In this document: positions 5,505 through 62,817 of the stretch, piece by piece
Layout of the letters: each line of letters opens with the position of its first letter
Numbering within the stretch: position 1 is the first letter of the stretch
Source: a virus
IMG/VR virus record: IMGVR_UViG_3300021256_000006
Span: 1 to 64,000 of that record
Direction: 5' to 3' (one strand)
Length of the DNA stretch: 64,000 nt
Made by a program: the position numbers and the translations under genes
Notes under the pieces: model-generated
What the model saw: only the letters and a program-made list of their open reading frames with translations
Told to the model about the DNA's origin: nothing
The model's database searches: none

Positions 5505-5678
5505 ATGTCAAAAGTCTAATGTCAAATGTCTAATGTCAAATGTCAAATGTCGGAGGTCTAAGGTCAAACAATTCCTCACTCCTAACTCCTCATTCCTAAC
5601 TCCTCATTCCTCACTCCTAACTCTTCATCCCTCATCCCTCATCCATCTTCCCTCATCCATCTTCCATCATACATCTTC
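5505..5678. repeat. heptamer-repeat array (TGTCAAA/GGTCTAA class followed by about 15 ANTCCTN heptads)
   Basis: Direct reading shows strict 7-nt periodicity over more than 150 nt. Pyrimidine-rich on the plus strand. Confidence 0.85.
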
Positions 5679-5679
5679 G

Positions 5680-5759
5680 TGGGGAGTAGCGGACTCGAAC
5701 CGCCAGCTCATTCCTACTGTTATGAAGAGATTGCCACATTGTTTCTCTTTTTTCTCCCC
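5680..5759 (-). other. tRNA-like element (perfect T-arm plus acceptor, non-canonical D/anticodon arms)
   Basis: Minus strand reads GGGGAGA...GGCGG-TTCGAGT-CCGCT-ACTCCCC-A. The acceptor pairs 6 of 7. The other two arms have 13- and 10-nt loops. Confidence 0.35.
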
Positions 5760-5874
5760 AAGTTGTTGGTGCGGCTCTCACGAGTGGCACCAACTCGTTA
5801 ATGTATTAAAACTAACTGTCATGGTTTCTACAAGACTCTAATATCTACTTATTGAAAACAAACTTCCTAAAGAA

Positions 5875-6062
5875 TGAACGGGGGAGGCGACAGATTTGGA
5901 GTACTGGTTGTTTGCTGTGTTTTGCCCCCCCCCGTTCACGGGGCCTTTCACCCCTGTCTTCCCAGGACCTCTATTCGCCTGTTGCAATACAGGCATTTGT
6001 ATCGAATGGGAGAGGGTGGTGGTAGTTTCGTGCCATCTGCCAGTGCTGGCTCGCCCTCTCCC
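5875..6062. ncRNA. candidate structured RNA (GC-rich multi-hairpin block)
   Basis: 10-bp stem TGAACGGGGG/CCCCCGTTCA (5875-5884/5929-5938). 6-bp hairpin GCCTGT/ACAGGC. 9-bp stem GGGAGAGGG/CCCTCTCCC (6008-6016/6054-6062) enclosing GCCAG-TG-CTGGC. No credible ORF. Confidence 0.3.
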
Positions 6063-6076
6063 AGGCAGCTCTTTAT

Positions 6077-6712
6077 CTATACGGCTCGCTCTACCTTGAC
6101 ATACTGCCAGCAGAGCTGCACTTCACCAATCTGCTTCATCACATCCTCTAAAGCATCATGAGGCGTATCAACTTTCTCTAATTGAAGTCCGCAGTCCTTG
6201 CAAAAGGATACAATACTCCGCACGTCCACCACATTCCAAAACTTCCAAGGAGTATGATAGCATTCTCCTACAGCACGACGCATGGCTTCATCCAGAATAG
6301 GAAGGTCAAAGTTAGCCACGCCACGACCCCAAATGTGAAGGTCATAATTTTCGTTCCACTGCTTGAAGAGTTCATATACAAGAATCATTTCTGATGTAAT
6401 GTCAATAGACTCTTTCTGCCCGTCCTGTATGCGCTGCCGTGCCTCCTCACTCTGACGGTTCCACCATTCTTCTGTATTGAAGTCACTTGTCATGTGCATC
6501 AACAACGAACTGATAATAGACACATGCTGATGGTGCGTGAGAATCGTGAGAGGAATGGAACCATCCAACGAGAATGTTTTGAAGGCGACACTCAACACGA
6601 TGCTCCCAGCTGATGTGCCTAACGTCTCCAGGTCAAGCATGACATCTAATCTTTCTTTTTCCTTTTTATATTCCATCTTTCTTAATTTGTCCAAAAACCT
6701 TTCCGTCTTCAC
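6077..6712 (-). CDS. DEDD-family 3'-5' exonuclease
   Basis: Exo I motif MLDLETLG and Exo III motif HDALEDV. Alternative starts at 6676 and 6640. Confidence 0.75.
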   Translation of the reverse strand: MKTERFLDKLRKMEYKKEKERLDVMLDLETLGTSAGSIVLSVAFKTFSLDGSIPLTILTHHQHVSIISSLLMHMTSDFNTEEWWNRQSEEARQRIQDGQKESIDITSEMILVYELFKQWNENYDLHIWGRGVANFDLPILDEAMRRAVGECYHTPWKFWNVVDVRSIVSFCKDCGLQLEKVDTPHDALEDVMKQIGEVQLCWQYVKVERAV

Positions 6713-7043
6713 TCAAAAAGGCTACGTCAATTCCCTTGCTCCAGCATTCTTTCATCTCTCTCCTGCAACCATTGCTTCCGTGCCATCCGGGGCAAAACAA
6801 TGCCAGCTCGCATTCCGAAAGCGCTTGAAGGTCTGCACTCATGTATTCTTCATAAGTAGGCTTGACAATATGACCCGCCTCGTCCATCTTCTGCTTCTCT
6901 AAACGGGAAGCAACATGAAACGGGTTGATGACCTCCCAGCCCTCATGGGCAATCGTCAAAAGGGCGGAGGTTCTTGCAGCATATTGCCAACGCTCCTGCT
7001 CTTCATATCCGCTGATGGGCAAACTTAAATAGACTTTCATCAT
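6666..7043 (-). CDS. DUF4406 / nucleoside 2-deoxyribosyltransferase-like protein
   Basis: MKVYLSLPISG N-terminus and LFCPGWHGSNGCRREMKEC match the DUF4406 pattern. Confidence 0.65.
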   Translation of the reverse strand: MMKVYLSLPISGYEEQERWQYAARTSALLTIAHEGWEVINPFHVASRLEKQKMDEAGHIVKPTYEEYMSADLQALSECELALFCPGWHGSNGCRREMKECWSKGIDVAFLSEDGKVFGQIKKDGI

Positions 7044-7063
7044 GCTGGTTTCTTTTTTCAGTG

Positions 7064-7071: not shown

Positions 7072-7250
7072 AACGAAAATAAGAAACTAATTACTATATT
7101 TGTATATGTTATAAAACATATTTCACAAACCGATTACTGTTTTTGTACGCTTGCTATAAGAAGTTTTCAAGACGCTCTTCGTAAATCCCTTCTTCGTCGG
7201 GCATGTTCAATAAATATTCTAACAATATCTGAATTCCTAATTCCTCACTC

Positions 7251-7739
7251 CTAACTCTCAAAGTCCTCCAACTTCACATCATACACACCACTCTCGTTGG
7301 GCATTGTCAACAAGAACTCCAGCAGCATCCTCGTCTTTTGTGCATTGGTTATCTTGGTCTCAACCAATTTAAGAAAATTCAAATACCAGTCCGAACAACT
7401 TGCCGCATCGTCTGAATCCTTCATGTAATAGAGAGGGCGGGCAAACGCACCGGCATTACACCTCGTGCTATGCACAGATTTTTGGAAGAGGAGAAACCTG
7501 TGCTTGTCCTCTCCGCTCAACGCCATCCCCATTTCCTTCAAGGTCTTTTCCGTTTCCATAAGAAACGAGTTGCATACATCTGCCAAGATGTAAGTAATGT
7601 TCAGGCTACTGATTGCCTGCCGTGCCTTCAGTATCGCCTCCTCCTCAGAAAGGTTCTTATTCCCCTTCATCAAATTCTCTTTATAGAAGTTCACCTGCTC
7701 CAGGAACTCCTTCTTCTCTTGCTCTGTCTGAAATACCAT
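7251..7739 (-). CDS. hypothetical protein
   Basis: 162-aa ORF flanked by heptamer arrays at 7231-7259 and 7779-7811. Confidence 0.6.
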   Translation of the reverse strand: MVFQTEQEKKEFLEQVNFYKENLMKGNKNLSEEEAILKARQAISSLNITYILADVCNSFLMETEKTLKEMGMALSGEDKHRFLLFQKSVHSTRCNAGAFARPLYYMKDSDDAASCSDWYLNFLKLVETKITNAQKTRMLLEFLLTMPNESGVYDVKLEDFES

Positions 7740-7809
7740 AATTCGTTTTGGTTGTTTAATTTGTTTGATTCGTAGAATAATTCCTCATTCCTCATTCCTA
7801 ATTCCTAAT

Positions 7810-8175
7810 TCAAAATAAACTCATCTGTTCTCCTGGTTCAATATCCGCATCTGTCTCTATGAACATCTTTCTGAATAGATGAAATAACACATCCACCACA
7901 ATGCTGTTACCTGCTAAGTGACACTGGCTTGTTCTGCTGATACCCGCAGCCTGTATCTTGTCAATGCTGGCATCATCGACACCCATCAACCGAAAGAGTT
8001 CTCGTTCCGTCAGTTTGCGGATTTTGAATTTCTTGCCTATCAGTTCGGGCGGCAATTTCAGACGGCCGCATCCAATTTCTTCAATATCCGCACAAGAGAA
8101 ATCAATAAGGCTCTCATCTGCCCAATCCATGCCAGCGAACAGGTCTTGCTGTGTTGCTTCTTCCATATCTGTCAC
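7810..8175 (-). pseudogene. C5-cytosine DNA methyltransferase, C-terminal part (motifs IX-X)
   Basis: KIRKLTERELFRLMG (motif IX) and AGNSIVV (motif X). There is no convincing own start; the track start is GTG. Confidence 0.75.
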
Positions 8176-9146: not shown

Positions 9147-9941
9147 CTATATCCCCCCCCCTCGTGGCTTAAAGTCAAAACCATTGCCTTTTTCTTTCTC
9201 TTTCTTGCAACTCTTGAATAGTCCTTGCAACCGTTCCGCTGTGAGATAATACTTCTCGTCAACATTCTCTTCCACCATATCTATCAATCGCTTCTCTAAC
9301 TTGAACGGTTTTGGGAAGTGATAACGCACATTCCCCGCCAAACCCTCCAGTCCGTCCATACGGATGCTTACCAAAAAGATGCGAGGTCGGTGTTGTGGCA
9401 CACCGTAATCCATGCTGTTCAGAATCCTGGCAAAGTTCACATAGCCCAACCGCTCCAATTCCCTCTGCCACAAATTGAACATCCCGACAAACTTCTTCTG
9501 CACCATTGCAGCCACATTCTCCAAACACAAATATTTCGGCCGCTTCGCCATCACCGCATCTCTCACATTCCAAATGATGGAACTTCTAGTTCCGCTTCCT
9601 TCGGCAAAGCCGTGCTGCAAGCCAGCGGCTGAAATTGACTGACACGGTGTTGAGTAAAACAGAAGGTCACAGTCGGGAAATTTCTCCCAATCTATCTTGG
9701 TCATGTCACCCCAATTCCTGTCTGCCCACTGGGGAAACAAGGCATTGTGCGCCCGTACTGCCGGCTGTCGTTCCAACGGCGACTTGCTCTCAGGGTCAAA
9801 CTCACTCCAGGCCACTAACTCGTAGTCAAAGTCAGGATAGAATTTCTTCAATCGCTCTAATGCAAGGCATTGGCTATCATAGCCACTGCAAAGCGTTGCT
9901 ACCCGTAAAGGGTTTGCTTTGGTGTATAAAATCTTTCCCAT
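9147..9941 (-). CDS. C5-cytosine DNA methyltransferase, N-terminal catalytic part (motifs I-VIII)
   Basis: Motif I ATLCSGYDS, motif IV STPCQSIS, motif VI CLENVAAMV, motif VIII VPQHRPRIFLVS. ATG at 9941 is preferred; the track start at 10067 adds 42 aa. Confidence 0.8.
   Translation of the reverse strand: MGKILYTKANPLRVATLCSGYDSQCLALERLKKFYPDFDYELVAWSEFDPESKSPLERQPAVRAHNALFPQWADRNWGDMTKIDWEKFPDCDLLFYSTPCQSISAAGLQHGFAEGSGTRSSIIWNVRDAVMAKRPKYLCLENVAAMVQKKFVGMFNLWQRELERLGYVNFARILNSMDYGVPQHRPRIFLVSIRMDGLEGLAGNVRYHFPKPFKLEKRLIDMVEENVDEKYYLTAERLQGLFKSCKKEKEKGNGFDFKPRGGGI
9153..9161 (-). repeat. G9 homopolymer on GGG codons
   Basis: Counted directly. The N-terminal MTase half ends KPRGGGI-TAG. A G10 tract would continue as GGGDIAVTIQSRPGNRK... 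Confidence 0.95.
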
Positions 9942-10076
9942 GTTGTAGTATTGTTGCAACCAGCGGTTTGTGTTTACGCTGGCTTGATTGTTGTCTTGTA
10001 TAAAAGCGGGTACGCTCGGCAAGAAGGGAACAACTCTTTGCCGCATGGCGCGGCTTGCCTCACGCACCCGCTTCTT

Positions 10077-15009: not shown

Positions 15010-15993
15010 ATGAACTCATCTTATTCTTTTCTTCGAGAAGTGCTGACAACGCTGGCCTGGAATATAGAGTATTCGGCCGGCTCTTCGCTCGCTCGACAAT
15101 TACGAAGCAATTTATTGGCTCACGCTCCTTTGAATGAAGAGCGAACGATTGATAAGACCACATCAAGAATGGAAATCCTTGTCTGCAAGGCTTCTTCGAG
15201 ACGGGATTTTGAACGCCAGCACGCTGCACAAATGATTGCAAATCCAATGTATAAGGAAAGGGCGCAATTGTTTGAATCTAAAGTAATGGTCGGAAATGCA
15301 CGGTCTTTGGATTGGTGGGACGAGCTGGACGAAGATGACCAGGTGATTAACCTGCTCCATGTGGAGGGCCCAATCACACGCAACGGCGGAGCATGCTCTT
15401 ATGGCTCTAAAGATATTCGTGACCAAATGCTTTATGTGGCAGGGATGCCTAACTGCCTCGGTCACATCATCGTAATGGATTCTCCCGGCGGCTCTGCATA
15501 TTCTTCTAATGATTTTGAACAGGCTACAGATGCTGCTCGTAATGCGAAGCAACCTTCTGTTGGCTTGATTGACGGAATGTGCTGCTCGGCTTGCTTTGAC
15601 CTTTCTTCCATGCTGGATGAAGTGTATTACACTCACCCAAAGGACATGATAGGAAGCATAGGCACTTACATGAATGTTTTCACACTGAAGAATGGCGACC
15701 AAAACACGGTCACACAAGAAGTATTCCGTGAGGTCTATGCGGATGTGAGTGAGGATAAGAACCTCATCTTCCGTATGCTCGCCGATGGAGACGAGACTGG
15801 TGTGAAGGAGTGGGTCAATAAATTTGCGCAGGAGTTCCGCGACCGAGTGAAGGCGCGTCTTCCAAATACTCCGGATGAATGGCTGAAAGGAAAGACTTTT
15901 GGCGCTGCGGAAACAGTGGGCATTTGGACGATGGGACAGTCCGACCTCAACGGATGCATTGAACGGATCTTGCAACTGAACTCGCAAAGATAA
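15010..15993 (+). CDS. S49 (SppA/ClpP-fold) head maturation protease
   Basis: VMDSPGGS, GMCCSACF and IGSIGTY motifs. Positioned before the scaffold and capsid genes. Confidence 0.75.
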   Translation: MNSSYSFLREVLTTLAWNIEYSAGSSLARQLRSNLLAHAPLNEERTIDKTTSRMEILVCKASSRRDFERQHAAQMIANPMYKERAQLFESKVMVGNARSLDWWDELDEDDQVINLLHVEGPITRNGGACSYGSKDIRDQMLYVAGMPNCLGHIIVMDSPGGSAYSSNDFEQATDAARNAKQPSVGLIDGMCCSACFDLSSMLDEVYYTHPKDMIGSIGTYMNVFTLKNGDQNTVTQEVFREVYADVSEDKNLIFRMLADGDETGVKEWVNKFAQEFRDRVKARLPNTPDEWLKGKTFGAAETVGIWTMGQSDLNGCIERILQLNSQR

Positions 15994-16048
15994 TCTTGGT
16001 TTTGGCTTTTGCCACTACCGCAATAATTCAAACTTAAATACAAACACA

Positions 16049-16648
16049 ATGGCAAAGACTTACAAAAACATTCAGGCGTTTCTTGGTCTTGAATCGCTTG
16101 AGGTTCCAACGGACAAAAGCGTATGGCTTGCAGAGGTACTAGCAGACACGCTTGATGCGCGTATCGGGCAAGCAATCAGCAAGGAGGAAACGCTGGGCGT
16201 CAAGATGGAGGAGATTGTTAAACTTAACTCAACCATCAAGGAATTGCGCGAAACACTCGCACAGAAGGACGCTGCTCTTGAAGAGAAGGAAACTTCTATC
16301 AATGAACTGAATGAGCAGATTGGCCAGCTCAACGAGCAGGTGAACACGCTCAACTCTAATGCGGAAGAAAGCACAAATGCTGTAACCGAAAAGGAGAATC
16401 AGATTGCACAGCTGAACGAAGAGGTGACCAACCTCAAGCAAACCATCACGGAAAAGGAGGCTGAAATTGCCAAACTCGCTGGCAAAGCTCCGGAGGTTCC
16501 CGCCTCTAACGTAAAGGGTGGTGAGGGAGCATCTGAAGAAAAAGATGAATCTTTGAGCCCTCACAACGTGACTCATGCTGGCATGACTCTGAAAGAGGAG
16601 ACTGAGGCTATCAAGGCTCGTATCGCTGCTCTGAACGGACAGTCATAA
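16049..16648 (+). CDS. putative scaffolding protein
   Basis: 199-aa protein, E/K/Q-rich with heptad-like coiled-coil character. Lies between the protease and the capsid gene. Confidence 0.5.
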   Translation: MAKTYKNIQAFLGLESLEVPTDKSVWLAEVLADTLDARIGQAISKEETLGVKMEEIVKLNSTIKELRETLAQKDAALEEKETSINELNEQIGQLNEQVNTLNSNAEESTNAVTEKENQIAQLNEEVTNLKQTITEKEAEIAKLAGKAPEVPASNVKGGEGASEEKDESLSPHNVTHAGMTLKEETEAIKARIAALNGQS

Positions 16649-16707
16649 AGCAGCTGTCACCTTATAAGAATAACCACAACACAAACCACAAAAAACAAAA
16701 CAACCTT

Positions 16708-17946
16708 ATGGCAACAAAACAAGCAATTGACCTCTCGAATGTGAAGAGCGTCAAAAACGACATCCACCGTGACCTTATCGTCACTATCTCTGGCGCCACC
16801 AATGAGGCTCTTCAGCGATTGAAGGTGAACATCCTTCGTGGTGTGGAGAACCGCGATTCTGTCTTTGTTTACAAAGGCAATCAGCACATTGCTTCACAGT
16901 ATCAGGCTGGCAAGACTCCACGAGGCAAACTCGGCAAGGCTTACGAGCGCGAACTGGTAGTGAAGAACGCCATCACTTACGTTCCTGACAACGTGCAGAA
17001 CTACAGAAGCTCTGAACCGGAGTCTATGCTGGGCGTTTCTTCTGAAGGCGTGAAAAATTCTGCCATCATCCAGCGCCGACTCCTTTTCCAGGCTGTGCAG
17101 TTCGGCAATCAGGTGGTAAAGAACTTCTTCCATGGTGATTACTCTAAGGGCGCTGGCAACCCTTATGGCTTGTACGACGGTCTGCTGGTGAAGATTGAGG
17201 AGGATAAGACTAACGGTCTCATCAGCGAGGCTGCTGGCAACCTCGTCAACATCGGCGCTATCGACCTCTCTGACCCTGTTGCTTGCTATGACAAGTACAT
17301 TGCCTTCGTGAAGAAGCTCCACAGCGACCTCCGACAGAATGTGATTGTGTACACAACCGAGGAACTGGAAAGCGCTATCATCCGTGGCTATGCGCTGAAG
17401 TTTAACAACCTGCAGCAAGAGGTGTCTGCACAGAGCACGTTCCGCTCGTTCGAGGCTCGCAACGCTGAACTGATTTCTACTACGCTCCTTGGCACGGGTA
17501 CTGGTTTCATCGCTACTATGCCTGGCAACATCGACTATGCAACAGACCTCACCGGAGCTGAAGAGGCAAGTGATGCTTACCTTGGCGTGTTTGAGGATAG
17601 CGAAGACCCTCTCAACAGCATTCTCCTCGGCATGCAGTGTGCATCAGGAACGCGCCTTGTCAACTTCAATCCACAGGCTTTCGCTATCAGCAAGGACTAC
17701 AGCTTCACTCCTGAGGATATCGACGACCAGGAACTTGATTTCGTTGATGAAAACAAGGTGGCAGAACTGGAAGCACTCCTGAAGGACTTGATTCACTATA
17801 CCGCTGTGGACAAGACTGGTGAAGGGTACTCCTTGAAGAATCCTGCTAATGAGGGCTGGTATGAAAAGGAGGGCGACAACTACGTTCTCTCTGAGGATAC
17901 AACGGTTGACGATAACAAGACTTACTACACTCGCAGCGTAGGCTAA
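16708..17946 (+). CDS. putative major capsid protein
   Basis: 412-aa ORF directly after the protease and scaffold, followed by a strong hairpin. The call rests on position and size. Confidence 0.6.
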   Translation: MATKQAIDLSNVKSVKNDIHRDLIVTISGATNEALQRLKVNILRGVENRDSVFVYKGNQHIASQYQAGKTPRGKLGKAYERELVVKNAITYVPDNVQNYRSSEPESMLGVSSEGVKNSAIIQRRLLFQAVQFGNQVVKNFFHGDYSKGAGNPYGLYDGLLVKIEEDKTNGLISEAAGNLVNIGAIDLSDPVACYDKYIAFVKKLHSDLRQNVIVYTTEELESAIIRGYALKFNNLQQEVSAQSTFRSFEARNAELISTTLLGTGTGFIATMPGNIDYATDLTGAEEASDAYLGVFEDSEDPLNSILLGMQCASGTRLVNFNPQAFAISKDYSFTPEDIDDQELDFVDENKVAELEALLKDLIHYTAVDKTGEGYSLKNPANEGWYEKEGDNYVLSEDTTVDDNKTYYTRSVG

Positions 17947-17963
17947 TCTTGGGCTGATTGATT

Positions 17964-17997
17964 GTGCCGGGGAAACTGGCTTCGGTTCCCCCGGCAC
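17964..17997. terminator. GC-rich hairpin after capsid gene
   Basis: GTGCCGGGGAA..TTCCCCCGGCAC with one bulge. No clear U-run follows. Confidence 0.4.
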
Positions 17998-18038
17998 AAA
18001 ATAAAAAGAATGTCAAACAACACATACACAAATAGAAT

Positions 18039-18650
18039 ATGGCTAACATAACAGCAGCAAACGGCAATACGTATTCATGCGACCCTATCGACATCATCGT
18101 GGATGCTATGTGCCAAACTGAGCTTGCCGGAAACGGCGACCAGGTTTACTATTTTGACCGCTCTTTGGTCAAGGACTTGAACATTGACGAAAAGGGTAAC
18201 TTGAATGCTGACGAGTTCGTCGCAGCAGTGCGAGGAAAGGTCTATCAGCTGGATATGCACTCTGACACCGTACAGGGTACAGCAACCGTAGAGGACGACC
18301 AGACTGCAGGTCAGTCGCAGTTGACCGCTCGCGCCGATAAGGGAGAACAGGACTTCCGCCAGTTCGACCGCACCGCACGCTATGCTGACTATGCTTATAT
18401 GGCTGTCAGCACAACTGGCTTCCTCCGTCTCTACTACGGTCAGTTCAAGCGCAATAAGTATGCATCTTCGTATGACACGGGCACTGAATACAACAGCGAC
18501 CACGGTTTCACAATCACGATTACCGCTCCTGCTACGGAGTATGCGTATATCGGTGTGGACTTGTCAACGCAGACGGGCGAAACAAAGGCTACGCTCAGCG
18601 ACCTCCTGGCACGAAACGTTAATGCACCAGTTGTCAACGATGGCAATTAA
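18039..18650 (+). CDS. hypothetical head-module protein
   Basis: 203-aa ORF after the capsid gene. Confidence 0.55.
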   Translation: MANITAANGNTYSCDPIDIIVDAMCQTELAGNGDQVYYFDRSLVKDLNIDEKGNLNADEFVAAVRGKVYQLDMHSDTVQGTATVEDDQTAGQSQLTARADKGEQDFRQFDRTARYADYAYMAVSTTGFLRLYYGQFKRNKYASSYDTGTEYNSDHGFTITITAPATEYAYIGVDLSTQTGETKATLSDLLARNVNAPVVNDGN

Positions 18651-18672
18651 GCAGTTCGTCTTGTTTTAACTT

Positions 18673-18706
18673 TAAGCCCCGTCCCTCGAAAGGGGAACGG
18701 GGCTTC
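18673..18706. terminator. hairpin after head operon
   Basis: AAGCCCCGTCCCT-cgaa-AGGGGAACGGGGCTT. Confidence 0.4.
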
Positions 18707-18720
18707 TTAATTTATCGCAA

Positions 18721-18990
18721 ATGCTTTATTTACACTACCGGAGACTTTCTCGACTTACGGAGCAGAAGAACGCAAAGGGAGAGCCCATGCCTTATCGGAT
18801 TCTTTATGCTGCCAAGAACGGCGACATCATCACTCCGTCTAACGGGGAAATGATTACAACATCCGTAAATATCCGTAACGGAACACGGACCGTCCAATTC
18901 TTGCAGTCTGGGCAAACACGAACGCTGCGAGATTGCCTCTTCCTGTCAGTACACCTGAACGGAAAGGAATACAAAATCGTCGCGAACTAA
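18721..18990 (+). CDS. hypothetical protein
   Basis: 89-aa ORF. An internal ATG (MPYRILYAAKNGD) is also possible. Confidence 0.4.
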   Translation: MLYLHYRRLSRLTEQKNAKGEPMPYRILYAAKNGDIITPSNGEMITTSVNIRNGTRTVQFLQSGQTRTLRDCLFLSVHLNGKEYKIVAN

Positions 18991-19147
18991 AGGCCGAATG
19001 GCAATTGTCAAATGTCAAATGTCTAAGGTCTAATGTCTAAGGTCAAAGGTCTAAGGTCAAAAGTCACAGGCCGAATGGCTAATTGTCAATTGTCAACTAT
19101 CAACTGTCAACTATCAATTCCTCATTCCTAATTCCTCATTCCTAATT
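18991..19147. repeat. composite heptamer array (full copy)
   Basis: Order is GGCCGAATGGC, then TGTCAAA/GGTCTAA units, then GGCCGAATGGC, then TGTCAAC/TATCAAC units, then ATTCCTN units. It ends 13 nt before the ATG at 19161. Confidence 0.85.
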
Positions 19148-19160
19148 ATAAACTATCATC

Positions 19161-21008
19161 ATGCCTAAAAATGACTTCAAACATAAAATTGATGCACTCC
19201 AAGAATCAATAGCACGAAATGAAAAGGATGGCTTCGTGCCACTCATGACGGATAGAAGCATACTCGGCGCATTTTCTGCAATGGTATCTTCTGTCAGCAC
19301 GGGTTATGATGCCAAATCCTTATCTGGCACTAACCGCGATGATGAACTGAATGCGGGCAAATTTGCCATCACAGCGGGAAAACTATTTGGCGAACCAAAG
19401 GTGACGGTCGTCACAAAAGATGAACCTGACCTGCCGGGAAATGGAGCCGTAGGGTGGGGAACCAGAAATGACCTTCCTGCATACATATATAAAACGGCAA
19501 AGACGCTCCCATATACGGCACAAGGATTGGAGTACCAGGCGAACGCATCTGTGGGCATAAAGGCGATGTTTGTGTATCAGTACGCCACAATATCTAACGG
19601 AGTGATTACTAAGCACGAATGTGATTTCCATTTGGCCGGCCAACTGCTCATTTCTGAAATACGGGAAATCAGAAGGAGAATAAAGGAGGAGGAGGAAGAG
19701 AAGAGCGCACAGGAACAGAACGTGACACAGCAGCCATCTAAAGGAAATGTTATAGTGGTTGACGGACAACAGGAACAAAAAAGTTCTGAACCTTTGTCGT
19801 ATCGAACAAAGCCGGAACCGTATGTGCCGGAAGTTCCTCTTGCAGAAGTGGAGGATAGCGAGCTGGACTCATTGCAACGGGAATTGGATAACAAAGTGGC
19901 AGAGTACCGCAAATGGTATCAGGCGGACATCGAACTGAGAAACTTTGAGAAGAATAACGACTTGTCTAAATTGTTTAACGATTTAGCACAAGATGATATA
20001 GCACTCGACCTGAATTTTCCGCTCATTGGACTTGAACAAGGTACTAAAGAACAATGGGCTGCTAAAGACTGGTTCCCGAAAATTGTCAAGGTAGGATTTT
20101 CACCTGCAGTCATATCGCGCTTTGAATTGAAGGGCGAGGATAATAGAAGCCACTATGTCTATGCGAATGAGAAATGGAGATACCATCTTTCTGTAAGAAG
20201 AAACATCGTGGCCAACACGATTCCTTATCCGCTTATTCGGTGGATGAATTTCCACGACGACCTCGATAATTATATCGAAGAACAAAAAAAGAAGAAGAAT
20301 GGAAATGGCTGGTACTGTTGGTATGCGGTGCCTAATAAGCACCTCTCTAACGAAATGGAATATTACACCTTCCCCGCATGGTGGTCTATTTATCCGTCTT
20401 TGGCTTTTCTGTATGCGACAACGCTGATGCTGGATAAGTCTATCGCCAGACAGAATGATATTGCTTGGAGACGCATCATCTATGTAGATAGAGGCTATCT
20501 TGAAGATCTTTACGCACAAGACGAAGACGGACAAGACAAAAAACGACAAGAGGAAATCCGTAAAGAGCTGGAGATGAAGGTGAATAATTTTCTCTCTAAC
20601 AAAGCAAATAACGGAAAAACGCTCATGGTGGATTCCACTATATCGGAGGACGGTAAGACGCTCGTCAATTCTATACGTGTCGAAACCATACCAGAGACCT
20701 CGCAAAAGACTACAGAGGATGAAATACACGCCATATCTTCTGTTCTGTTTTATGCACAAGGACTGGACCCAAGACTGGTGGGCGCCGTGCCCGGAAAGCA
20801 AAATAGCAGCTCTGGAACTCAAGCAAGAGAGCTTGAACTGCTGAACATTAAAAAACTGACAACACGACGTGAACGCATCAAGCGATTCATGCTCAATATC
20901 GCATACCATAACGGATGGTGCCCTGAGCATGTGGGTGTGACAATCCAAGATTTGTCGCTCTCAACGCTGGATCGCTCTAACACCGGAATGGTCGAAACGA
21001 ATAACTAA
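19161..21008 (+). CDS. putative portal protein
   Basis: 615-aa ORF in the head module. The call rests on size and position only. Confidence 0.4.
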   Translation: MPKNDFKHKIDALQESIARNEKDGFVPLMTDRSILGAFSAMVSSVSTGYDAKSLSGTNRDDELNAGKFAITAGKLFGEPKVTVVTKDEPDLPGNGAVGWGTRNDLPAYIYKTAKTLPYTAQGLEYQANASVGIKAMFVYQYATISNGVITKHECDFHLAGQLLISEIREIRRRIKEEEEEKSAQEQNVTQQPSKGNVIVVDGQQEQKSSEPLSYRTKPEPYVPEVPLAEVEDSELDSLQRELDNKVAEYRKWYQADIELRNFEKNNDLSKLFNDLAQDDIALDLNFPLIGLEQGTKEQWAAKDWFPKIVKVGFSPAVISRFELKGEDNRSHYVYANEKWRYHLSVRRNIVANTIPYPLIRWMNFHDDLDNYIEEQKKKKNGNGWYCWYAVPNKHLSNEMEYYTFPAWWSIYPSLAFLYATTLMLDKSIARQNDIAWRRIIYVDRGYLEDLYAQDEDGQDKKRQEEIRKELEMKVNNFLSNKANNGKTLMVDSTISEDGKTLVNSIRVETIPETSQKTTEDEIHAISSVLFYAQGLDPRLVGAVPGKQNSSSGTQARELELLNIKKLTTRRERIKRFMLNIAYHNGWCPEHVGVTIQDLSLSTLDRSNTGMVETNN

Positions 21009-23165: not shown

Positions 23166-23170
23166 ACAAC

Positions 23171-23685: not shown

Positions 23686-24093
23686 ATGAAACCGAATCTT
23701 AAAACAGCACCAAAAGTTCACTACCTGGATGCAATTAAAATGATAGCGAAAGAGAACCATATCTCAGAAGCATCTGTAAGAACATCAATCGAGGGATTGT
23801 ATAACATGGTGGTTCGGGAACTTGCCAACGGGAAGACTATCGAACTGAAAGGATTTGGAATCTTCTACACGTCACAGCAACATGTCATCGCTAACTGGCT
23901 TACCGAAAAAAGACCAGATCGGAAAAGAACAACTATCAACCCGAAGTTTCGACCAGCGGTGCGATTCAAACAACAAATACAAGCGCTCACGGGCTACCCA
24001 ATATCAAACAACCACAAGCCCAGCGAAATGATAAAAGCTATCAAGAGCAATCCTGTAGCTCATCTCCAGCTCGACAAGTTCAAGAAGGACTAA
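23686..24093 (+). CDS. HU/IHF-family DNA-binding protein
   Basis: ANGKTIELKGFGIFY and INPKFRPAVRFK match the HU fold signature (G..v.L.GFG.F ... P.F.p). Confidence 0.75.
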   Translation: MKPNLKTAPKVHYLDAIKMIAKENHISEASVRTSIEGLYNMVVRELANGKTIELKGFGIFYTSQQHVIANWLTEKRPDRKRTTINPKFRPAVRFKQQIQALTGYPISNNHKPSEMIKAIKSNPVAHLQLDKFKKD

Positions 24094-24432: not shown

Positions 24433-24652
24433 GCACACATATCGCACACGCACATATTACACGCATATATTCCACACCCACATAACACGCACAGACCCGC
24501 ATCGCACGCACATATTACGCACCCAAATAACAAACGCCCACACATCGCCCCCACATAACAAACACGCGCATATCACACACGATTCCACCAGATATTATAT
24601 CCGTCGCAATCTCCAGCAAATTACAAAGATAAATGATTGTATATAATGAAAT

Positions 24653-29069: not shown

Positions 29070-29206
29070 TCTTATGTGTGTGTTTTTGCGTGCGATTTCT
29101 TTTTGAATCATCGGCTATTCTTTTCCCCGAGCGCCGCCCCACTCGGGAGGATGGGCGCGTCTTGCGTACATTTCACCACAGACCATATATGCTGCACCCG
29201 TTCAGA

Positions 29207-30780: not shown

Positions 30781-30837
30781 CTATCTATTCACTCGACCAT
30801 GCGAGTATAAAGAGGCATTAGGCATGGTGCGTTATTA

Positions 30838-30861
30838 GGGTGCGGACATCCGCACCCTTTT
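30838..30861 (+). terminator. intrinsic terminator
   Basis: GGGTGCGG-acat-CCGCACCC-TTTT. Confidence 0.75.
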
Positions 30862-39354: not shown

Positions 39355-39510
39355 CAATGACCTACAAACGATTTCACCGCATCATGAATGGTAGGAGTTA
39401 CACCATCACAACCCACCAGCCTGACGTGCCGGACACACTCCGCATATCGAGAGACAAAATGATTGTGTTTAACTATATCAAATAAATTCATCATCTAAAT
39501 CATCACAACT

Positions 39511-46636: not shown

Positions 46637-46790
46637 TAGGAATTTGGAATGAGGAATGAGGAATGGTATGTTATGCTGATTGCATGGTATCAATTCCTAT
46701 CTCCTCATTTCTCATTCCTAACTCCTCATTGTATCAACATTCCATTCCTAACTCCTAATTCCTAATTCCTCATTTTGTATAATTCCTCAT
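46637..46790. repeat. palindromic heptamer element
   Basis: TAGGAATTTGGAATGAGGAATGAGGAATGG - core TATGTTATGCTGATTGCATGGTATC (inverted relative to the core at 33055-33080) - ATTCCT arrays. Confidence 0.8.
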
Positions 46791-46797
46791 TTATTCT

Positions 46798-46903
46798 TAC
46801 CTTTGCACCGGAAATGCGATAGTTTCCGGTCATAGTAATCCTTGTTTCCAAGGATGATTTGATGATGAGGAGGGCGGCGTGATGAACCGCCCTCCAACTT
46901 TTT
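46798..46903 (+). ncRNA. candidate sRNA or leader with its own promoter and terminator
   Basis: -33 TTTG (46774-46777) and -7 TAccTTTG (46798-46805). Hairpins CCGGAAA/TTTCCGG and CCTTG/CAAGG. Terminator GGAGGGCGG-9 nt-CCGCCCTCC followed by AACTTTTT (46869-46903). Confidence 0.45.
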
Positions 46904-59118: not shown

Positions 59119-59254
59119 TCTCTCTCCTTTCCCCTCTCTTCGTCTTCGTTTTCGTCCTCCTCCCTCCTGCGCCCGCCGGTCCTCTCTCCCCTCTCCTCTC
59201 TTCCCTCATCCCTCATCCCTCATACATCTTCCCTCATCCCTCTTCCCTCTTCCC

Positions 59255-61174
59255 TCACCATCTCCGGCTCCCCCATCTTCCGTTCTTCCATGCGTTATGA
59301 CTTCTTCCGCTCCACATCGTCTGCTCTTTCATACCAAACTTGCAAAGTCCTCGCATGATATTGTCGAAGGCATCGCTCATGTCGGTGTAGTTGTTGCTGC
59401 CCAGTTCATCATCTGTACTCATCCCATCACCGCTTGTGCGCTTCTCTGGAGCCTTGTACTTGTGCAACTTGCCCATCTTTGTCGTCGTCTTTGAGTTCTC
59501 CAGCGAGGCCACAAGATAGTCATTGCGAATAGCGTTAATTCGTGGCATATACCGCTCTTTACCGGCAAAGCACGCATTGATAAACTCAAACTTCACATCG
59601 TGGAACATCGGATTGCCCATGTCAATCATGATGACATTCCATCCATGATTTTCGAGTGATTCACGGATGATATTGTAGAAGTAGTATCGTTCATCGTTTC
59701 CAGCGCGACTGGCATACGAGCGCCCTTGCTTGCCTGTGCTGTCATAGTATAGCACGACGTCTTTGCAGGTGTACTGGTGTGGAGCGTAGTAATTGTGCCA
59801 CTTCTCCATAAGGTCTTCCAGCATCTTTGGATTCTTCATGAACATGCTGGATAGGATGATGGCGCTTTCTGTGCCATCCATCATGCCCGTCTGTGCAGTC
59901 ACCACCGTATTCACGTTGGAGTTGTAGTCATGAGCAATATAGAGTGGCTTGCCCGGCTGCATATCCACGTCAAGGGTGCAGTTGCCGCCTACGGCACCGA
60001 GTTCCTGAAGGTCTGGCGCCTCATAATCGTAGGTCTTGCTGTAAGCTCCGAGGTCAATGTTGGCCTTGTGCTTGGACTGAAACTTGCTGTAAATACGGTT
60101 GGTCTCATCGCTTTGGCTTGGCGTGTAGCCGTGAATATCCATGTCGAAGTTCGGATAAAAGCGCTGTGACTTGTCTAACGTGGCTTTCTTTCCAAGAATC
60201 TGCACGTTGTACAAGAGGTCTGGCATGTCTCGTTTTCGGTCTGCCATGTACTGCATTCCTAAAATGCTGGCATTGTAAAACGAAGAGAACCTAAAGAACA
60301 CTCTGGACTGGCACCTCAAATAGCGGAGCCGTTCTACAAACTTGGGCGCATGGGATAATTGCCAGGCTGCATCCGTCGTGTATCGACCGTCTTTCTTGTT
60401 GGCTTCATCATATTCTTCTGCATATTTCAGTTGCGCCAGCATCTCGCAGATGAGGTCATTGTAGTCTCCCGTTTGGTCTTCTTCCATGCATTCCCACTCT
60501 TGCTGCTTCTTGATGACTCCTGCATCGGAGAAGAAGGACTCGGAGAGGTAAAACGGGTTTTCGTTCCGTCTGTAACCGGGGTGATCATATACTTCGCCAC
60601 GCAGAGCAGGACGCACAGACTCCACATAGTTCCTCCAGTTGGCATATCTTGCCTCGTCCATCAACGAATAGCTGAGGTTCAGACCATTTGCTGGGGCGTA
60701 GGAATTGGTGGAGATGCACATCAGGATATTCCCGTTGATGAACGACAGCACGTTCTCCCATCGGCGAGGAACAGCCATAGGTTTGTCCCATCCCCACCGC
60801 GCGTTGGGCTTTCCGCGCACAAAGTCACGGCCCTCTATGATGCCAAAAGTCTCCATCGACTTCACAAGGTTGGGCATCAGGATGGCAAACACCTGCTTGA
60901 TGGTGGCGCCAAACAACGCACCTGTTGCCCTCGGCAAGGTGGCTACGCACCCATGTAGCCGGGTGGATTCAAAGGTGGTCTTGCCCAGACCACGACCGCC
61001 GCACATAGCCATTGACTTGCTGCCCATGTTGTGTGCCAGCCGTTGTGCGGGATTAAGATACACCTGTTTGGTCCCACTCGCCATAGGTGTCTCTTCCGTC
61101 TCGCTAAACATCAATGGGTACTGCTTGGCCACGTCTTTGATGTTATCCTCTAATGTAAGCCCATTTCTTGCCAT
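59255..61174 (-). CDS. terL: terminase large subunit
   Basis: Walker A CGGRGLGKTT and Walker B LSYSLMDEA. C-terminal nuclease-like half. 639 aa. Confidence 0.8.
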   Translation of the reverse strand: MARNGLTLEDNIKDVAKQYPLMFSETEETPMASGTKQVYLNPAQRLAHNMGSKSMAMCGGRGLGKTTFESTRLHGCVATLPRATGALFGATIKQVFAILMPNLVKSMETFGIIEGRDFVRGKPNARWGWDKPMAVPRRWENVLSFINGNILMCISTNSYAPANGLNLSYSLMDEARYANWRNYVESVRPALRGEVYDHPGYRRNENPFYLSESFFSDAGVIKKQQEWECMEEDQTGDYNDLICEMLAQLKYAEEYDEANKKDGRYTTDAAWQLSHAPKFVERLRYLRCQSRVFFRFSSFYNASILGMQYMADRKRDMPDLLYNVQILGKKATLDKSQRFYPNFDMDIHGYTPSQSDETNRIYSKFQSKHKANIDLGAYSKTYDYEAPDLQELGAVGGNCTLDVDMQPGKPLYIAHDYNSNVNTVVTAQTGMMDGTESAIILSSMFMKNPKMLEDLMEKWHNYYAPHQYTCKDVVLYYDSTGKQGRSYASRAGNDERYYFYNIIRESLENHGWNVIMIDMGNPMFHDVKFEFINACFAGKERYMPRINAIRNDYLVASLENSKTTTKMGKLHKYKAPEKRTSGDGMSTDDELGSNNYTDMSDAFDNIMRGLCKFGMKEQTMWSGRSHNAWKNGRWGSRRW

Positions 61175-61175
61175 A

Positions 61176-61252
61176 TCAATTCCCTAATTGTCAACTATCA
61201 ACTGTCAACTATCAACTGTCAGCTATCAACTGTCAATTATCAATTCCCTCCT
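61176..61252. repeat. heptamer array (TGTCAAC/TATCAAC class)
   Basis: Direct reading. Immediately followed by hairpin motif copy 61256-61279 (CTGCGTCCAGCGGTTCGCCCGCTG). Confidence 0.85.
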
Positions 61253-61895
61253 CCCCTGCGTCCAGCGGTTCGCCCGCTGGTTCATCCATCTTGTGTGTAA
61301 TACGGTTCCCAACTTCCACTTCCTGCTTCTCCTTCAACTTATCCAGTGCTTTTTCAATCTTCTCATCATGTTCATCAATATGCGCATCCCATTGTCGCAT
61401 AATGCCCAGCAAAGTCTTGTCGCCAATCGTTTTGCGGTCAGGGTCAAGCACCTCGACGTAGGGAGTGTACACAAAGGCTTGTGGTCTGATTTGCTTGTCT
61501 TCAACCTCCGGCTCTGGCTTGTCAAGTTGATTGGCTCTTGTCAGCACCTTGGCAGCATCGAGCATGCCTTTTCGGTCGTTCACTGCCGCAGAATCTCGCA
61601 TGACCTTTTCGCTGGCCCAGTTCACCAGGTCTTTCGCCTTCTGCCGTGTCATGCGCTGAAAGTTGTTGCGGATATACTCGAAGTAAACCATGTCCTCAGC
61701 AATCATGGACGGTGAATGTTTGAACTTCCACCGTAGGCACTGAACCACATCCATGCAAGGATTCTCGTTGTACATGTCGTACAGCGAAAACAAGTCATTA
61801 AGCCTCTTGCGAACGTGCACAAGTTCCGTCAGTTCGTGTGCCGGAATGCCGTTCACGAAGTGTGACTGAATAAAAGGTGTCAAATCTGTCTTCAT
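61233..61895 (-). CDS. hypothetical protein (possible small terminase by position)
   Basis: ATG at 61895 (MKTDLTPF). The track start at 61913 is a TTG inside the repeat array. Lies directly upstream of terL. Confidence 0.5.
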   Translation of the reverse strand: MKTDLTPFIQSHFVNGIPAHELTELVHVRKRLNDLFSLYDMYNENPCMDVVQCLRWKFKHSPSMIAEDMVYFEYIRNNFQRMTRQKAKDLVNWASEKVMRDSAAVNDRKGMLDAAKVLTRANQLDKPEPEVEDKQIRPQAFVYTPYVEVLDPDRKTIGDKTLLGIMRQWDAHIDEHDEKIEKALDKLKEKQEVEVGNRITHKMDEPAGEPLDAGEEGIDN

Positions 61896-61897
61896 AT

Positions 61898-62000
61898 AAC
61901 TGTCAACTATCAACTATCAACTATCAACTATCAATTCCTCATTCCTAATTCCTAACTCCTAATTCCTAACTCCTCACTCCTAACTCCTCACTCCTAACTC
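61898..62000. repeat. heptamer array (TATCAAC units then ANTCCTN units)
   Basis: Direct reading. Confidence 0.85.
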
Positions 62001-62302
62001 ATCATTCTCAATTTCATCTCTTTCTCTATCTCTTTCAGCAGTATTTTTTTTTCTGCCTTTTCGTCTGCGAGGCTCTTGATGGCTGTGTCGTATTGGTCCT
62101 GTGCCATCTTCATGTGGCGGTCAAGTTCTTCAATCGCGCCCTCGGCCCATGGAAGGAATGAGGCAAGCGCTTTCACTTCCGTATCCATTGCTTTTTCCTC
62201 TTCGTCCGTGAATGGCACCATGGGGCGCTCATGCATGACTCTTAAATACTCTTGTTCCATCTCTTTCAGGTATTTACACTTTGCGCACAACGCTCTCCAC
62301 AA
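61994..62302 (-). CDS. hypothetical protein
   Basis: 102-aa ORF. Alternative non-overlapping ATG at 62260. Confidence 0.5.
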   Translation of the reverse strand: MWRALCAKCKYLKEMEQEYLRVMHERPMVPFTDEEEKAMDTEVKALASFLPWAEGAIEELDRHMKMAQDQYDTAIKSLADEKAEKKILLKEIEKEMKLRMMS

Positions 62303-62693
62303 ACACCATCATTGATTTTTGGTCGTAGATTCCGACATACAAAGGCTTTACGTCTTGGTCAACGACCGTGAAATGCAGCAAGTGCACTTCTTCTTTCTTC
62401 ACACCGTCCGATTCTCCTGCACTTCTGCGCTCATGATTCACATGGGCGAGAATACGGTCTAAATAGAACTTGACCTGCTCTTCAAACACCAGCTCTTCAA
62501 ACCATGAGTGATTCAAGATGGCAACAATTTTGAGCAGCCATTTCTTCCAGCGTGCCATTTTGTGCGCACGCAAAGCAAAGTCAAACATACTTGTATCAAG
62601 GAGTTCCTGATACAAGTCCTGACGGATAAAGACATGAGGCGTGTCAACGTCCACCGCCAAACGGTCATTTTTTAATTCGTCCCTAATATTCAT
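62274..62693 (-). CDS. hypothetical protein
   Basis: ATG at 62693 (MNIRDELKNDR). The track TTG start at 62729 lies inside the repeat array. Confidence 0.5.
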   Translation of the reverse strand: MNIRDELKNDRLAVDVDTPHVFIRQDLYQELLDTSMFDFALRAHKMARWKKWLLKIVAILNHSWFEELVFEEQVKFYLDRILAHVNHERRSAGESDGVKKEEVHLLHFTVVDQDVKPLYVGIYDQKSMMVFVESVVRKV

Positions 62694-62817
62694 ATTCCTA
62701 ATTATCAATTGTCTAATGTCTAATGTCAAAAGTCACAGGCCGAATGGCAATTATCAACTGTCAACTGTCAACTATCAACTATCAATTCCTAATTCCTCAT
62801 TCCTAATTCCTAATTCC
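62694..62817. repeat. composite heptamer array (full copy)
   Basis: TGTCTAA units, then AGTCACAGGCCGAATGGC, then TATCAAC/TGTCAAC units, then ATTCCTN units. It fills the whole intergenic gap. Confidence 0.85.

Follow-up and report, generated by a model that had tools for sequence, protein, structure and literature searches.

Why should the genome of a gut virus carry, mostly between its genes, long runs of short repeats with a period of exactly seven nucleotides (nt)? The question was raised by a 64,000-nt stretch (the window) of IMG/VR record IMGVR_UViG_3300021256_000006, positions 1 to 64,000, which belongs to a larger element from a gut or rumen metagenome. A first-pass annotation had described modular heptamer arrays there, in three unit classes and a fixed order, as a family that it did not recognise. 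The arrays are of a known, functionally unexplained kind, namely heptanucleotide simple-sequence arrays of the short tandemly repeated repetitive (STRR) or long simple-sequence repeat (long-SSR) type. How they come about is a more tentative matter, and the account that we favour, with somewhat less than even confidence, is an origin by slippage and recombination, retention where reading frames allow, and effects that are generic.

Tandem Repeats Finder (TRF) placed period-7 arrays at all 13 loci first described. In our own periodicity scan of the window, 51 positions had period 7 and none had periods 5, 6, 8, 9, 10 or 12; the 46 positions at period 11 all came from one unrelated array. Chance levels were set with 100 dinucleotide-preserving shuffles, against which two consecutive copies of AYTCCTM matched 46 times (0.00 expected), of TRTCAAC 11 times (0.00 expected) and of DGTCWAA 15 times (0.03 expected). 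When the element was lengthened to 78.8 kb by joining L152 and L153, it held 14 arrays of period 7, five of period 6, which were hexamer repeats placed by TRF inside open reading frames (ORFs), and at most two of any other period. Period-7 arrays numbered 10 in four relatives and 22 in five loci of Bacteroidales metagenome-assembled genomes (MAGs), compared with 0–1 at other periods. The loci are dispersed, 13 in the window and one just outside it, and their units are tandem and head-to-tail with at least three copies, as in long SSRs and STRRs. Their placement in intergenic gaps held for 12 of the 13, which lie at gene junctions; the array at 42830–42863 lies in frame in a linker of a 1696-amino-acid (aa) ORF. 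The locus given as about 59150–59258 was periodic from about 59184 onward, and 59150–59183 is C/T-rich without periodicity.

Four unit classes were distinguished, often mixed at one locus and in one shared register: DGTCWAA (class 1), TRTCAAC (class 2), AYTCCTM (class 3) and CCCTCAT/CCATCTT (class 4), the last having been counted as variants of the third. Composites, cores included, are a single unbroken heptad run that extends from a stop codon and stops some 10 nt short of the following ATG, and about 163 stacked heptads gave the profile T-n-Y-C-w-M-A, with almost no G. The proposed module order, class 1 to 2 to 3 (to 4), was found at every composite of the element, including the one outside the window. 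The "unique core" word GGCCGAATGGC is present at 18992, 19069 and 62738, on the + strand only, but it is really 14 nt made of two heptads in the surrounding register (GGCCGAA TGGCWAA). Rfam at its gathering threshold gave no match at the arrays.

The family itself is documented. Intergenic tandem heptanucleotide arrays, including mosaics and inverted pairs, have been described in Cyanobacteria, Beggiatoaceae, Bacteroidetes and Xanthomonas (PMC4679880, PMC4692102), so the statement that the family is unrecognised falls away. As cited in those two papers, heptamers are the commonest long SSR in prokaryotes, for which polymerase slippage was proposed (Mrazek 2007), and three Calothrix heptanucleotides make up the STRR (Mazel 1990). 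The arrays here and the STRR or long SSRs have in common tandem 7-nt units, many dispersed intergenic loci, several unit types per genome and no established function. The STRR units CCCCAGT, TTGGTCA and CAACAGT occur in heterocystous cyanobacteria, and rotation brings some of them near the classes of the element (AGTCAAC vs. TGTCAAC, GGTCATT vs. GGTCAAA). The units are not identical, however, and the hosts are heterocystous cyanobacteria in one case and rumen Bacteroidales with a phage-like element in the other; fixed order and a single strand are features of the composites here, unlike the STRR. STRR1–3 proper were rejected, as DGTCWAA, TRTCAAC, AYTCCTM and CCCTCAT are similar rotations only.

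Repeats of TAACTGA, known from marine Beggiatoaceae, 15 cyanobacteria and five Bacteroidetes, often lie a few nucleotides upstream of start codons that lack a Shine-Dalgarno sequence (MacGregor 2015, PMC4679880). In Gramella, Aequorivita, Elizabethkingia and Microcystis they occur together with other heptamers; close relatives lack them at the corresponding gaps, they fall within ORFs now and then, and they disrupt assembly (PMC4679880). The arrays here are likewise intergenic, absent from some relatives' orthologous gaps, occasionally within ORFs and assembly-breaking. They are oriented by DNA strand, whereas TAACTGA is oriented by the downstream gene, and TRF found no TAACTGA arrays in the window, which places them outside the TAACTGA network. 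In one relative (L108/L174) a TAAATGA unit, one substitution from TAACTGA, is always sense-oriented. A third comparison is with GGGAATC of Xanthomonas and GGGGAYT of Nostoc, which favour the ends of genes, occur as inverted pairs and are transcribed, and for which no regulatory role could be detected (Rehm 2015, PMC4692102); their inverted pairs can form stem-loops, and their lengths vary between close relatives (PMC4692102). The reverse complement of the former, GATTCCC, resembles classes 3 and 4 (ATTCCTC, ATCCCTC). Classes 1–3 lack the G3 tracts of GGGAATC, so no G-quadruplex is expected of them; only class 4 (− strand GAGGGAT) has a G3N4 pattern. Borg elements resemble the present element in pervasive, fast-evolving tandem repeats, both intergenic and in frame in proteins, and their repeats are reported to be virtually absent from the host (PMC9879509). 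The present element differs in a period of strictly 7 and in units that recur in host-like genomes; Borg repeats are not known to be restricted to a 7-nt unit. A literature search on the array sequence itself returned no paper, and one on the STRR unit strings returned unrelated papers only.

The orientation of the arrays was then compared with that of the genes. All tandem pairs of classes 1, 2 and 4 lie on the + strand, and class 3 pairs are divided 39 to 7, the seven on the − strand being the left arms of the three palindromic loci. As first described, the arrays are pyrimidine-rich on the + strand whatever the gene direction (11 of 11 single-polarity loci of the 78.8-kb element, seven among − strand genes and four among + strand genes). 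Relatives oriented by synteny had the same polarity in 22 cases vs. 4, including arrays in the − strand primase ORF of L108 and L110. A gene block encoding 226-aa and 639-aa proteins lies on the + strand in relatives L112 and L108 and on the − strand in the window, and the adjoining arrays are pyrimidine-rich on the + strand in both. In the sense direction, then, the arrays ahead of the block are of the pyrimidine type in L112 and of the purine type in the window, and therefore it is the DNA strand that is kept and not the transcript sequence. A single polarity of this kind suggests a DNA process that acts across the genome in one direction, such as packaging, or replication that is unidirectional or of the rolling-circle type, which would fix the array orientation that arises or survives. 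As a general property of viral heptad arrays, polarity was rejected: across other IMG/VR contigs it is just weak, with 58 minority-strand arrays vs. 66 expected over 43 loci.

The class 3 arrays bear a further relation to genes. In 63 of 107 cases they adjoin an opposite-strand ORF where it ends, the median distance being 4 nt, partly because their purine reading closes all three frames. The − strand reading does so at 11 of the 14 loci, and six − strand ORFs of the window end inside an array. Arrays also lie within ORFs, in the polyvalent ORF of the window and in the primase ORF of L108 and L110. A 28-mer, TCATTTCTCATTTCTCCTTTATCATTTA, was additionally noted in three copies in the primase ORF of L108 (582–609, 633–660 and 3147–3174) and once in another − strand ORF (L174, 3402–3429), all in one relative; the only open sense frame of these copies reads NDKGEMRN.

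Comparison with relatives showed a turnover that depends on distance. At the junction upstream of a 615-aa gene, four relatives (60–69% identical protein) had 4–57 nt, a GC hairpin or no array, and at the junction after that one they had nothing or TCAAC-type heptads reaching the ATG; at this level of identity, therefore, arrays are not positionally conserved. Absence or random placement in close relatives, with no conserved module order, had been named by the first-pass annotation as a sign against its reading, and this is half borne out: at 56–69% protein identity arrays lie elsewhere, have other units or are lacking, and the module order is not kept in MAG locus L117. Positions are kept, in contrast, in a closer relative, L172 (ArdC 79% identical, genes 72–84% identical in nucleotides), which retains both ardC-flanking palindromes, the in-ORF array and the palindrome after the polyvalent gene. 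About 45 nt of the in-ORF array are identical in L172, and the box GTACCTTTGCAC is conserved after the post-polyvalent palindrome. At the palindrome downstream of ardC, the 40-nt core is 100% identical between the window and L172 and unit numbers are equal, while all right-arm units read ATTCCTC in the window but ACTCCTA in L172, without compensation in the other arm. This pattern amounts to homogenisation within the arm. The window palindrome upstream of ardC is closer to the post-polyvalent palindrome of L172 (89.8% over 98 nt) than to its orthologue (81%), and the post-polyvalent core has opposite orientations in the window and in L172. The comparison as a whole thus bears the marks of concerted evolution, exchange between loci and inversion between inverted arms.

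Three loci had been described as palindromic versions with a shared core. The core at 46637 is indeed the reverse complement of the one at 33023, with one mismatch, but 34182 shares only ATACCAT. The loci at 33023 and 34182 bracket ardC (33111–34178) as described, and the 32-nt exact repeat was recovered at 31992–32023 and 33069–33100. All three palindromes obey the order 5′-purine arm, core, pyrimidine arm-3′; among 104 cases in IMG/VR, 29 had a purine array no more than 400 nt upstream of a pyrimidine array and none had one downstream. RNA folding gave −32.9 kcal/mol (z −5.2) for 33023–33130, −42.8 (z −6.8) for 34182–34300 and −38.8 (z −4.4) for 46637–46790, as 6-bp helices with a mismatch at each seventh nucleotide. 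The six palindromes of the window and L172 range from −29 to −44 kcal/mol, all with hairpin potential. Single-polarity arrays are structure-free, at about 0 kcal/mol (e.g., a minimum free energy, MFE, of 0.0 over the 103 nt of 61898–62000, + strand). One palindrome, that at 46637, stands between a gene end and a conserved TAnnTTTG promoter-like box; the Bacteroidetes-type promoter-like TTTG-N20-TACCTTTG that follows it lies at about 46770–46806. Such boxes abut this palindrome and several MAG arrays, and most window arrays abut start or stop codons inside operons.

RNA evidence came from assembled contigs of four metatranscriptomes, which carry no strand information. RNA contigs that overlap one another, with much the same depth (12, 18 and 12), cover the loci between 32.0 and 34.3 kb, which means that these loci are transcribed and do not terminate strongly, although DNA carry-over is possible. 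The scaffold and major-capsid segment, 15921–18630, is the most abundant RNA of the element in these four rumen or gut metatranscriptomes, with a contig depth of 17–48 vs. 2–6 downstream. This strongly expressed segment ends at 18575–18925 in four of four runs, 65–400 nt upstream of the array at 18991, so the 4–8-fold drop is not assignable to the array. The tail-gene block is barely expressed, too weakly to judge an array effect. Several functional candidates were set aside. Intrinsic (Rho-independent) terminators do not fit, as the hairpins are AU-rich, mismatched at each seventh nucleotide and without a U tract, and RNA does not drop at the ardC palindromes. A small hairpin 5′ of pyrimidine arrays is no general rule (mean MFE over 45 nt of −7.0 kcal/mol upstream vs. 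−7.2 downstream). Rho utilisation (rut) sites were rejected because class 1 units are not richer in C than in G, and Type III restriction avoidance or Chi-like sites because at least four unrelated units cannot share one recognition site and inverted arms exist.

Array words are not confined to the element. Four tandem copies of AYTCCTM were found in 103 IMG/VR stretches (27–70% G+C), compared with 20 for a scrambled unit of the same composition, and four of TRTCAAC in 12. The junction word between classes 2 and 3 was found in five rumen MAG contigs. In MAG locus L117, 8 kb contain 16 arrays, which belong to classes 1, 2 and 3 and lie between genes for a MacB/FtsX-type permease and a GT4 glycosyltransferase; these are ordinary chromosomal genes, and the arrays of this locus have both orientations and other module orders. 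Array words are thus common to the element and rumen Bacteroidales chromosome-like contigs. In the DNA runs that hold the element, the arrays are covered 3–28 times as deeply as their flanks, the array words have many different flanking sequences, and numerous distinct loose ends occur where modules meet. Matches to the core word AGTCACAGGCCGAATGGC in IMG/VR and the JGI metagenome collection were chance hits in coding DNA only, none of them elsewhere in an array context, and the core is therefore not a dispersed element.

A DNA-level origin is argued for by the register that runs through the cores, the arrays within ORFs, the polarity that follows the strand, the homogenisation, exchange and inversion, and the loss at larger distance. 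In the slippage account, arrays would grow and change by duplication and loss in 7-nt steps, followed by divergence of the units; units would homogenise within an arm, loci would exchange sequence, and the core between inverted arms could invert. Arrays would persist where reading frames permit, in stop-to-start gaps and occasionally as an in-frame linker. Their effects would be generic and not sequence-specific. The purine-rich strand would close all three reading frames (frame-closing trailers), the G-poor strand would give structure-free RNA beside start codons (leaders), and facing arms would make a long mismatched hairpin at the end of a cassette or operon, a position that suggests, most likely, a transcript end, an insulator or a stabiliser.

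Several observations weigh against this account. Slippage alone leaves unexplained the preference for 7 over 5, 8 or 10, the approximately five-fold excess of AYTCCTM in IMG/VR (103 vs. 20 scrambled), the single chirality of inverted pairs (29 vs. 0), the 63 of 107 class 3 arrays that abut opposite-strand ORF ends (at ~4 nt) and the sense-oriented TAAATGA of L108 and L174, which follows gene direction in seven of seven cases and limits the DNA-strand rule. Four-fold sites had no replication-type GC3 (third codon position) skew; the skew follows codon usage and not strand, and a replication-type skew was rejected as the cause of polarity. Conservation reaches 100% in the in-ORF array and in one core, where the background is 72–81%, and arrays are identical in three assemblies; such perfect conservation looks like constraint, or recent conversion. 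Two low-depth contigs had +42 and +49 nt at a class 1 array, and these may derive from other genomes. RNA contigs cross the ardC palindromes with similar depth on both sides, the hairpin role being argued from position only. The unexplained number 7, the AYTCCTM excess, the 29:0 chirality and the perfect conservation keep two protein-binding models alive.

The first of these, unlikely but still a serious contender, treats the arrays as 7-nt-register landing pads for a single-strand-binding protein, either a cold-shock or S1-like protein with an oligonucleotide-binding (OB) fold or an RNA-recognition motif (RRM)-type Rbp of Bacteroidetes and Cyanobacteria. At much the same low level of confidence, one protein would sit on each heptad, on RNA with a role in translation, stability or antitermination, or on the single-stranded + strand in replication. 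This would account for the period of 7, since CspB binds one heptanucleotide per protein on single strands, with the consensus GTCTTTG/T and a strong preference for T2, C3 and T4 (PMC1904285), and almost every unit of the element has xTC within a G-poor heptad (GTCTAAT, GTCAACT, TTCCTCA). A contiguous protein filament would require a register like this one, unbroken across classes and cores; a start codon follows many arrays after 0–24 nt, and the sense-oriented TAAATGA differs by one substitution from TAACTGA, for which binding by S1, Csp or CsrA has been proposed. The orientation in the element, however, follows the DNA strand and not the transcript, one orthologous gene start is accompanied by pyrimidine or by purine arrays depending on the lineage, and unit sequences differ widely between relatives. 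Pfam found no cold-shock domain, S1 or RRM in 33 individually scanned window proteins, nor in the best 25 of 56 families matched by 35 further small proteins.

A bolder form of this idea, which we consider distinctly improbable, would make the arrays a strand-polar code in 7-nt register that is read on single strands by one small OB-fold or RRM protein per heptad. If true, such proteins would be common to Bacteroidetes, Cyanobacteria and their phages, arrays of different units would recruit them to one DNA strand or transcript genome-wide during unidirectional replication or packaging, and the palindromes of purine arm, core and pyrimidine arm would be switchable hairpins. An element of about 100 kb with about 14 one-strand arrays would then make the question of heptanucleotide accumulation directly testable.

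The second protein-binding model, about as doubtful as this code, holds that the arrays are double-stranded operators or centromeres for a ribbon-helix-helix (RHH, omega-like) or nucleoid-associated protein that polymerises on 7-bp heptads, with silencing, insulation or partition as the outcome. The omega protein of pSM19035, an RHH protein, binds contiguous direct and inverted heptads with the consensus WATCACW, which the class 2 unit TATCAAC fits at five of seven positions. Contiguous 7-bp heptads, direct and inverted and in a register off the helical repeat, are also found here, as is a link to ardC and establishment genes. Reg576, an RHH protein of p576, controls ardC and other establishment genes through TTATCCC heptamers (PMC6294495), and ardC in the window is bracketed by heptad arrays. 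Given omega, Reg576 and CspB (the latter two in PMC6294495 and PMC1904285), the remark that a 7-bp period is unusual for protein binding does not hold. Several arrays lie directly upstream of TAnnTTTG promoter-like boxes, and the element has a plasmid-type Rep3 with iterons and an HU-HIG protein. The arrays are, on the other hand, much longer than RHH operators, most lie between co-transcribed genes or abut start codons and leave no room for a promoter, the units are not conserved among relatives, and chromosome-like MAG contigs have these unit classes beside housekeeping genes. No RHH protein appeared in the 33 individually scanned window proteins or in the best 25 of the 56 families of the small proteins (Pfam), and no ParA-type partner among the scanned window proteins.

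Less probable again is a reading of the composites as copies of some small element, mobile or mosaic and non-autonomous, similar to bacterial interspersed mosaic elements (BIMEs), repetitive extragenic palindrome (REP) doublets forming hairpins (REPINs) or miniature inverted-repeat transposable elements, inserted strand-specifically at replication forks. The module order would, with the same slight likelihood, be the element's own structure. The two full composites share a 23-nt junction (TCAAAAGTCACAGGCCGAATGGC) and their module order, the class 2 to class 3 junction word recurs in the five MAG contigs, inverted arms around a core resemble REPINs, and some loci are closer to non-orthologous than to orthologous loci. 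One-strand polarity is typical of IS200/IS605-type single-strand transposition, and a TnpB/OrfB_IS605 gene is present in relative L114. A BIME- or REPIN-like element is nevertheless made less likely by a core that is not dispersed (AGTCACAGGCCGAATGGC in no other array context in IMG/VR or JGI metagenomes) and by composites that lack defined ends and target-site duplications and whose classes grade in register. The module order also differs in MAG locus L117. REP, BIME and REPIN proper were rejected because the units are direct repeats and neither a REP-associated tyrosine transposase (RAYT) nor TnpA was found among the scanned window proteins. Replication iterons, 17–22 bp or longer and beside rep, were likewise rejected, since the heptads are spread over the whole element and the separate 44-, 19- and 18-nt repeats beside Rep3 suit that role. 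Assembly artefacts of low-complexity reads, a possibility raised at first, are of negligible likelihood: k=31 unitigs do break at the arrays and make spurious joints between them, but contigs of three assemblies (ENA ERZ12302812, JGI 3300002641 and Logan SRR873596) span identical arrays, DNA depth is even on both flanks, an independent wolf-gut assembly has arrays at orthologous positions, and the same kind of array is present in 103 IMG/VR stretches and in MAGs.

Since 1990, when heptanucleotide repeats became known, no function has been accepted for them and the number 7 has gone unexplained. What is new here is the single register through cores, the + strand polarity, the 29:0 chirality, the homogenisation seen against L172, the core swaps and the inversion. 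With about 14 arrays, strict polarity, conserved ardC palindromes and graded relatives, the element is a compact test of slippage against protein binding. Repeat words shared by phage and host give homology patches at gene borders, where phage–phage and phage–host recombination could occur. The arrays are also a practical hazard in rumen metagenomes, as they break short-read assemblies, cause false joins and produce depth spikes of 3–28×.

Table 1. Heptad arrays of the element (window coordinates; strand is the one on which the units are read).
Position	Strand	Feature	Context	Source
5505–5678	+	Composite: class 1 (DGTCWAA, 9 units), class 3 (AYTCCTM), class 4 (CCCTCAT/CCATCTT)	Between the start of − strand gene 5182–5469 and a tRNA-3′-end-like sequence; classes merge by point changes, 7-nt register unbroken	TRF
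7231–7259	+	Short class 3 array	Holds stop codon of − strand gene 7251–7739	TRF
7779–7811	+	Class 3 array	Between two − strand genes; holds stop codon of 7810–8175	TRF, own scan
18991–19147	+	Full composite: core heptads GGCCGAA TGGCAAT, class 1 ×8, AGTCACA, core GGCCGAA TGGCTAA, class 2 ×5, class 3 ×4	From stop codon (18988–18990) to 13 nt before ATG at 19161; identical in three assemblies; absent at the orthologous junction of four relatives	TRF
31998–32030	+	Short class 3 array	Directly 3′ of a stop codon; belongs to the 32-nt exact repeat	TRF
33023–33130		Palindrome: purine arm (KAGGART ×4), core ATACCATGCCATCAGCATAAC, pyrimidine arm (ATTCCTM), single-stranded pyrimidine tail	Upstream of ardC	
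34182–34300		Palindrome: purine arm ×5, core ATGTCATACCATTGGCAGAGTATC, pyrimidine arm ×4, tail	Downstream of ardC	
42830–42863	+	Class 3 array	In frame in the 1696-aa polyvalent ORF; IPNSSFLIPNS in a Pro-rich linker	
46637–46790		Palindrome: core is reverse complement of the 33023 core, one mismatch; long right arm	After the stop of the polyvalent gene	
59184–59258	+	Class 4 array (CCCTCAT/CCCTCTT), 14- and 21-nt higher order; − strand with G3N4 pattern	Holds stop of − strand gene 59255–61174	
61176–61252	+	Class 2 array, TGTCAAC/TATCAAC alternating (period 14)	Fills gap from start of 59255–61174 (−) to stop of 61233–61913 (−)	TRF
61898–62000	+	Composite: class 2 ×5, class 3 ×10	Between − strand genes, 2 nt from a start codon	
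62694–62817	+	Full composite: class 1 ×3, AGTCACA, core GGCCGAA TGGCAAT, class 2 ×5, class 3 ×5	Reaches from a − strand gene's start codon to the stop codon of the gene that follows	
66531–66622 (window-equivalent)	+	Further composite	Outside the window	Extended element

The window is part of a 99,478-bp metagenome contig (ENA ERZ12302812 NODE_360), and pieces identical to it are also present in JGI 3300002641 and the Logan assembly of SRR873596. It encodes a 2246-aa tape-measure protein (PhageMin_Tail), an S49-like protease that adjoins a coiled-coil protein and a 412-aa protein, a 1135-aa DnaG-type primase, C5 and N6 DNA methylases, and an HU-HIG protein (23686–24093). A Rep3-type initiator adjoins iterons of 44, 19 and 18 nt. 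ArdC (Pfam ArdcN and MPTase-PolyVal), PcfJ/PcfK, LPD11 and a 1696-aa methylase-helicase polyvalent protein are encoded as well. On the strength of this gene set, the element looks like a tailed phage or phage-plasmid. Megablast with 6 kb of sequence matched nothing among GenBank phages or PLSDB plasmids, and a search of IMG/VR for relatives of the 615-aa protein found none. Relatives with 56–79% identical proteins were found on 70–99-kb contigs from bovine and wolf gut metagenomes. We infer a Bacteroidales host from the Bacteroidetes-type gene families, the TAnnTTTG promoter-like boxes and the array words common to rumen Bacteroidales MAGs.

Other repeats were also observed. Direct repeats of 44 nt (×4.5), 19 nt and 18 nt at 24648–25165, directly upstream of the Rep3-type initiator gene 25523–26923, are probably iterons of a plasmid-type origin. 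In the non-coding gap 29206–29364, TRF found an 11-nt unit, AGTGACAAGAT, repeated 14.5 times and with a higher order of 33 nt. It differs in kind from the heptads and may be a centromere-like array or a second iteron array. Hexamer arrays (TTTCGT, GTTTTC and CGTTTT; TRF) lie at 4449–4478, 4728–4759, 5192–5225, 63451–63485 and 63537–63559, and some are in ORFs and encode Lys-Thr repeats there, such as the KTKTKTKTKT tail of the DUF551 protein 5182–5469. Directly adjoining the array at 5505–5678, the − strand of 5679–5705 (GCGGTTCGAGTCCGCTACTCCCCA) resembles a tRNA T arm and acceptor 3′ end. It could be an attachment (att)-site remnant; ARAGORN and Rfam found no tRNA there, and a permissive Rfam scan of 5400–6000 returned noise only.

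Two non-coding regions are more conserved than their neighbours. A Pistol self-cleaving ribozyme was found at 30791–30869 on the + strand (Rfam RF02679, 47.9 bits vs. a gathering score of 34.5), and the region 30783–30885 is 95% identical in L172, compared with approximately 72–84% in neighbouring genes. The 142-nt intergenic stretch 39345–39486 is 95.8% identical to L172 (72–84% in genes) and could be an RNA or control region, for which Rfam at the gathering threshold gave no match. Among the genes, 38740–39354 (+) encodes a 204-aa protein that consists of MutS domain I only (Pfam E 2e-25), and a homologue adjoins ardC in relative L174; a lone mismatch- or loop-recognition domain coincides with slippage-prone repeats that fill the same element. 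A 121-aa ORF at 7810–8175 (−) matches just the C-terminal end of a C5 cytosine methylase and lies near a separate 306-aa C5 methylase at 9147–10067 (−); this may be a split or decayed second methylase gene. In relative L173, whose ArdC is 64% identical, the anti-restriction region at 4252–6151 has no heptad arrays and lies beside umuC/umuD-like genes (IMS, Peptidase_S24) and polysaccharide-synthesis genes, and the element may there be integrated in or adjacent to chromosomal DNA. The IS605 OrfB/TnpB (Cas12f-like) gene of relative L114 lies at 18820–19965 on the − strand.

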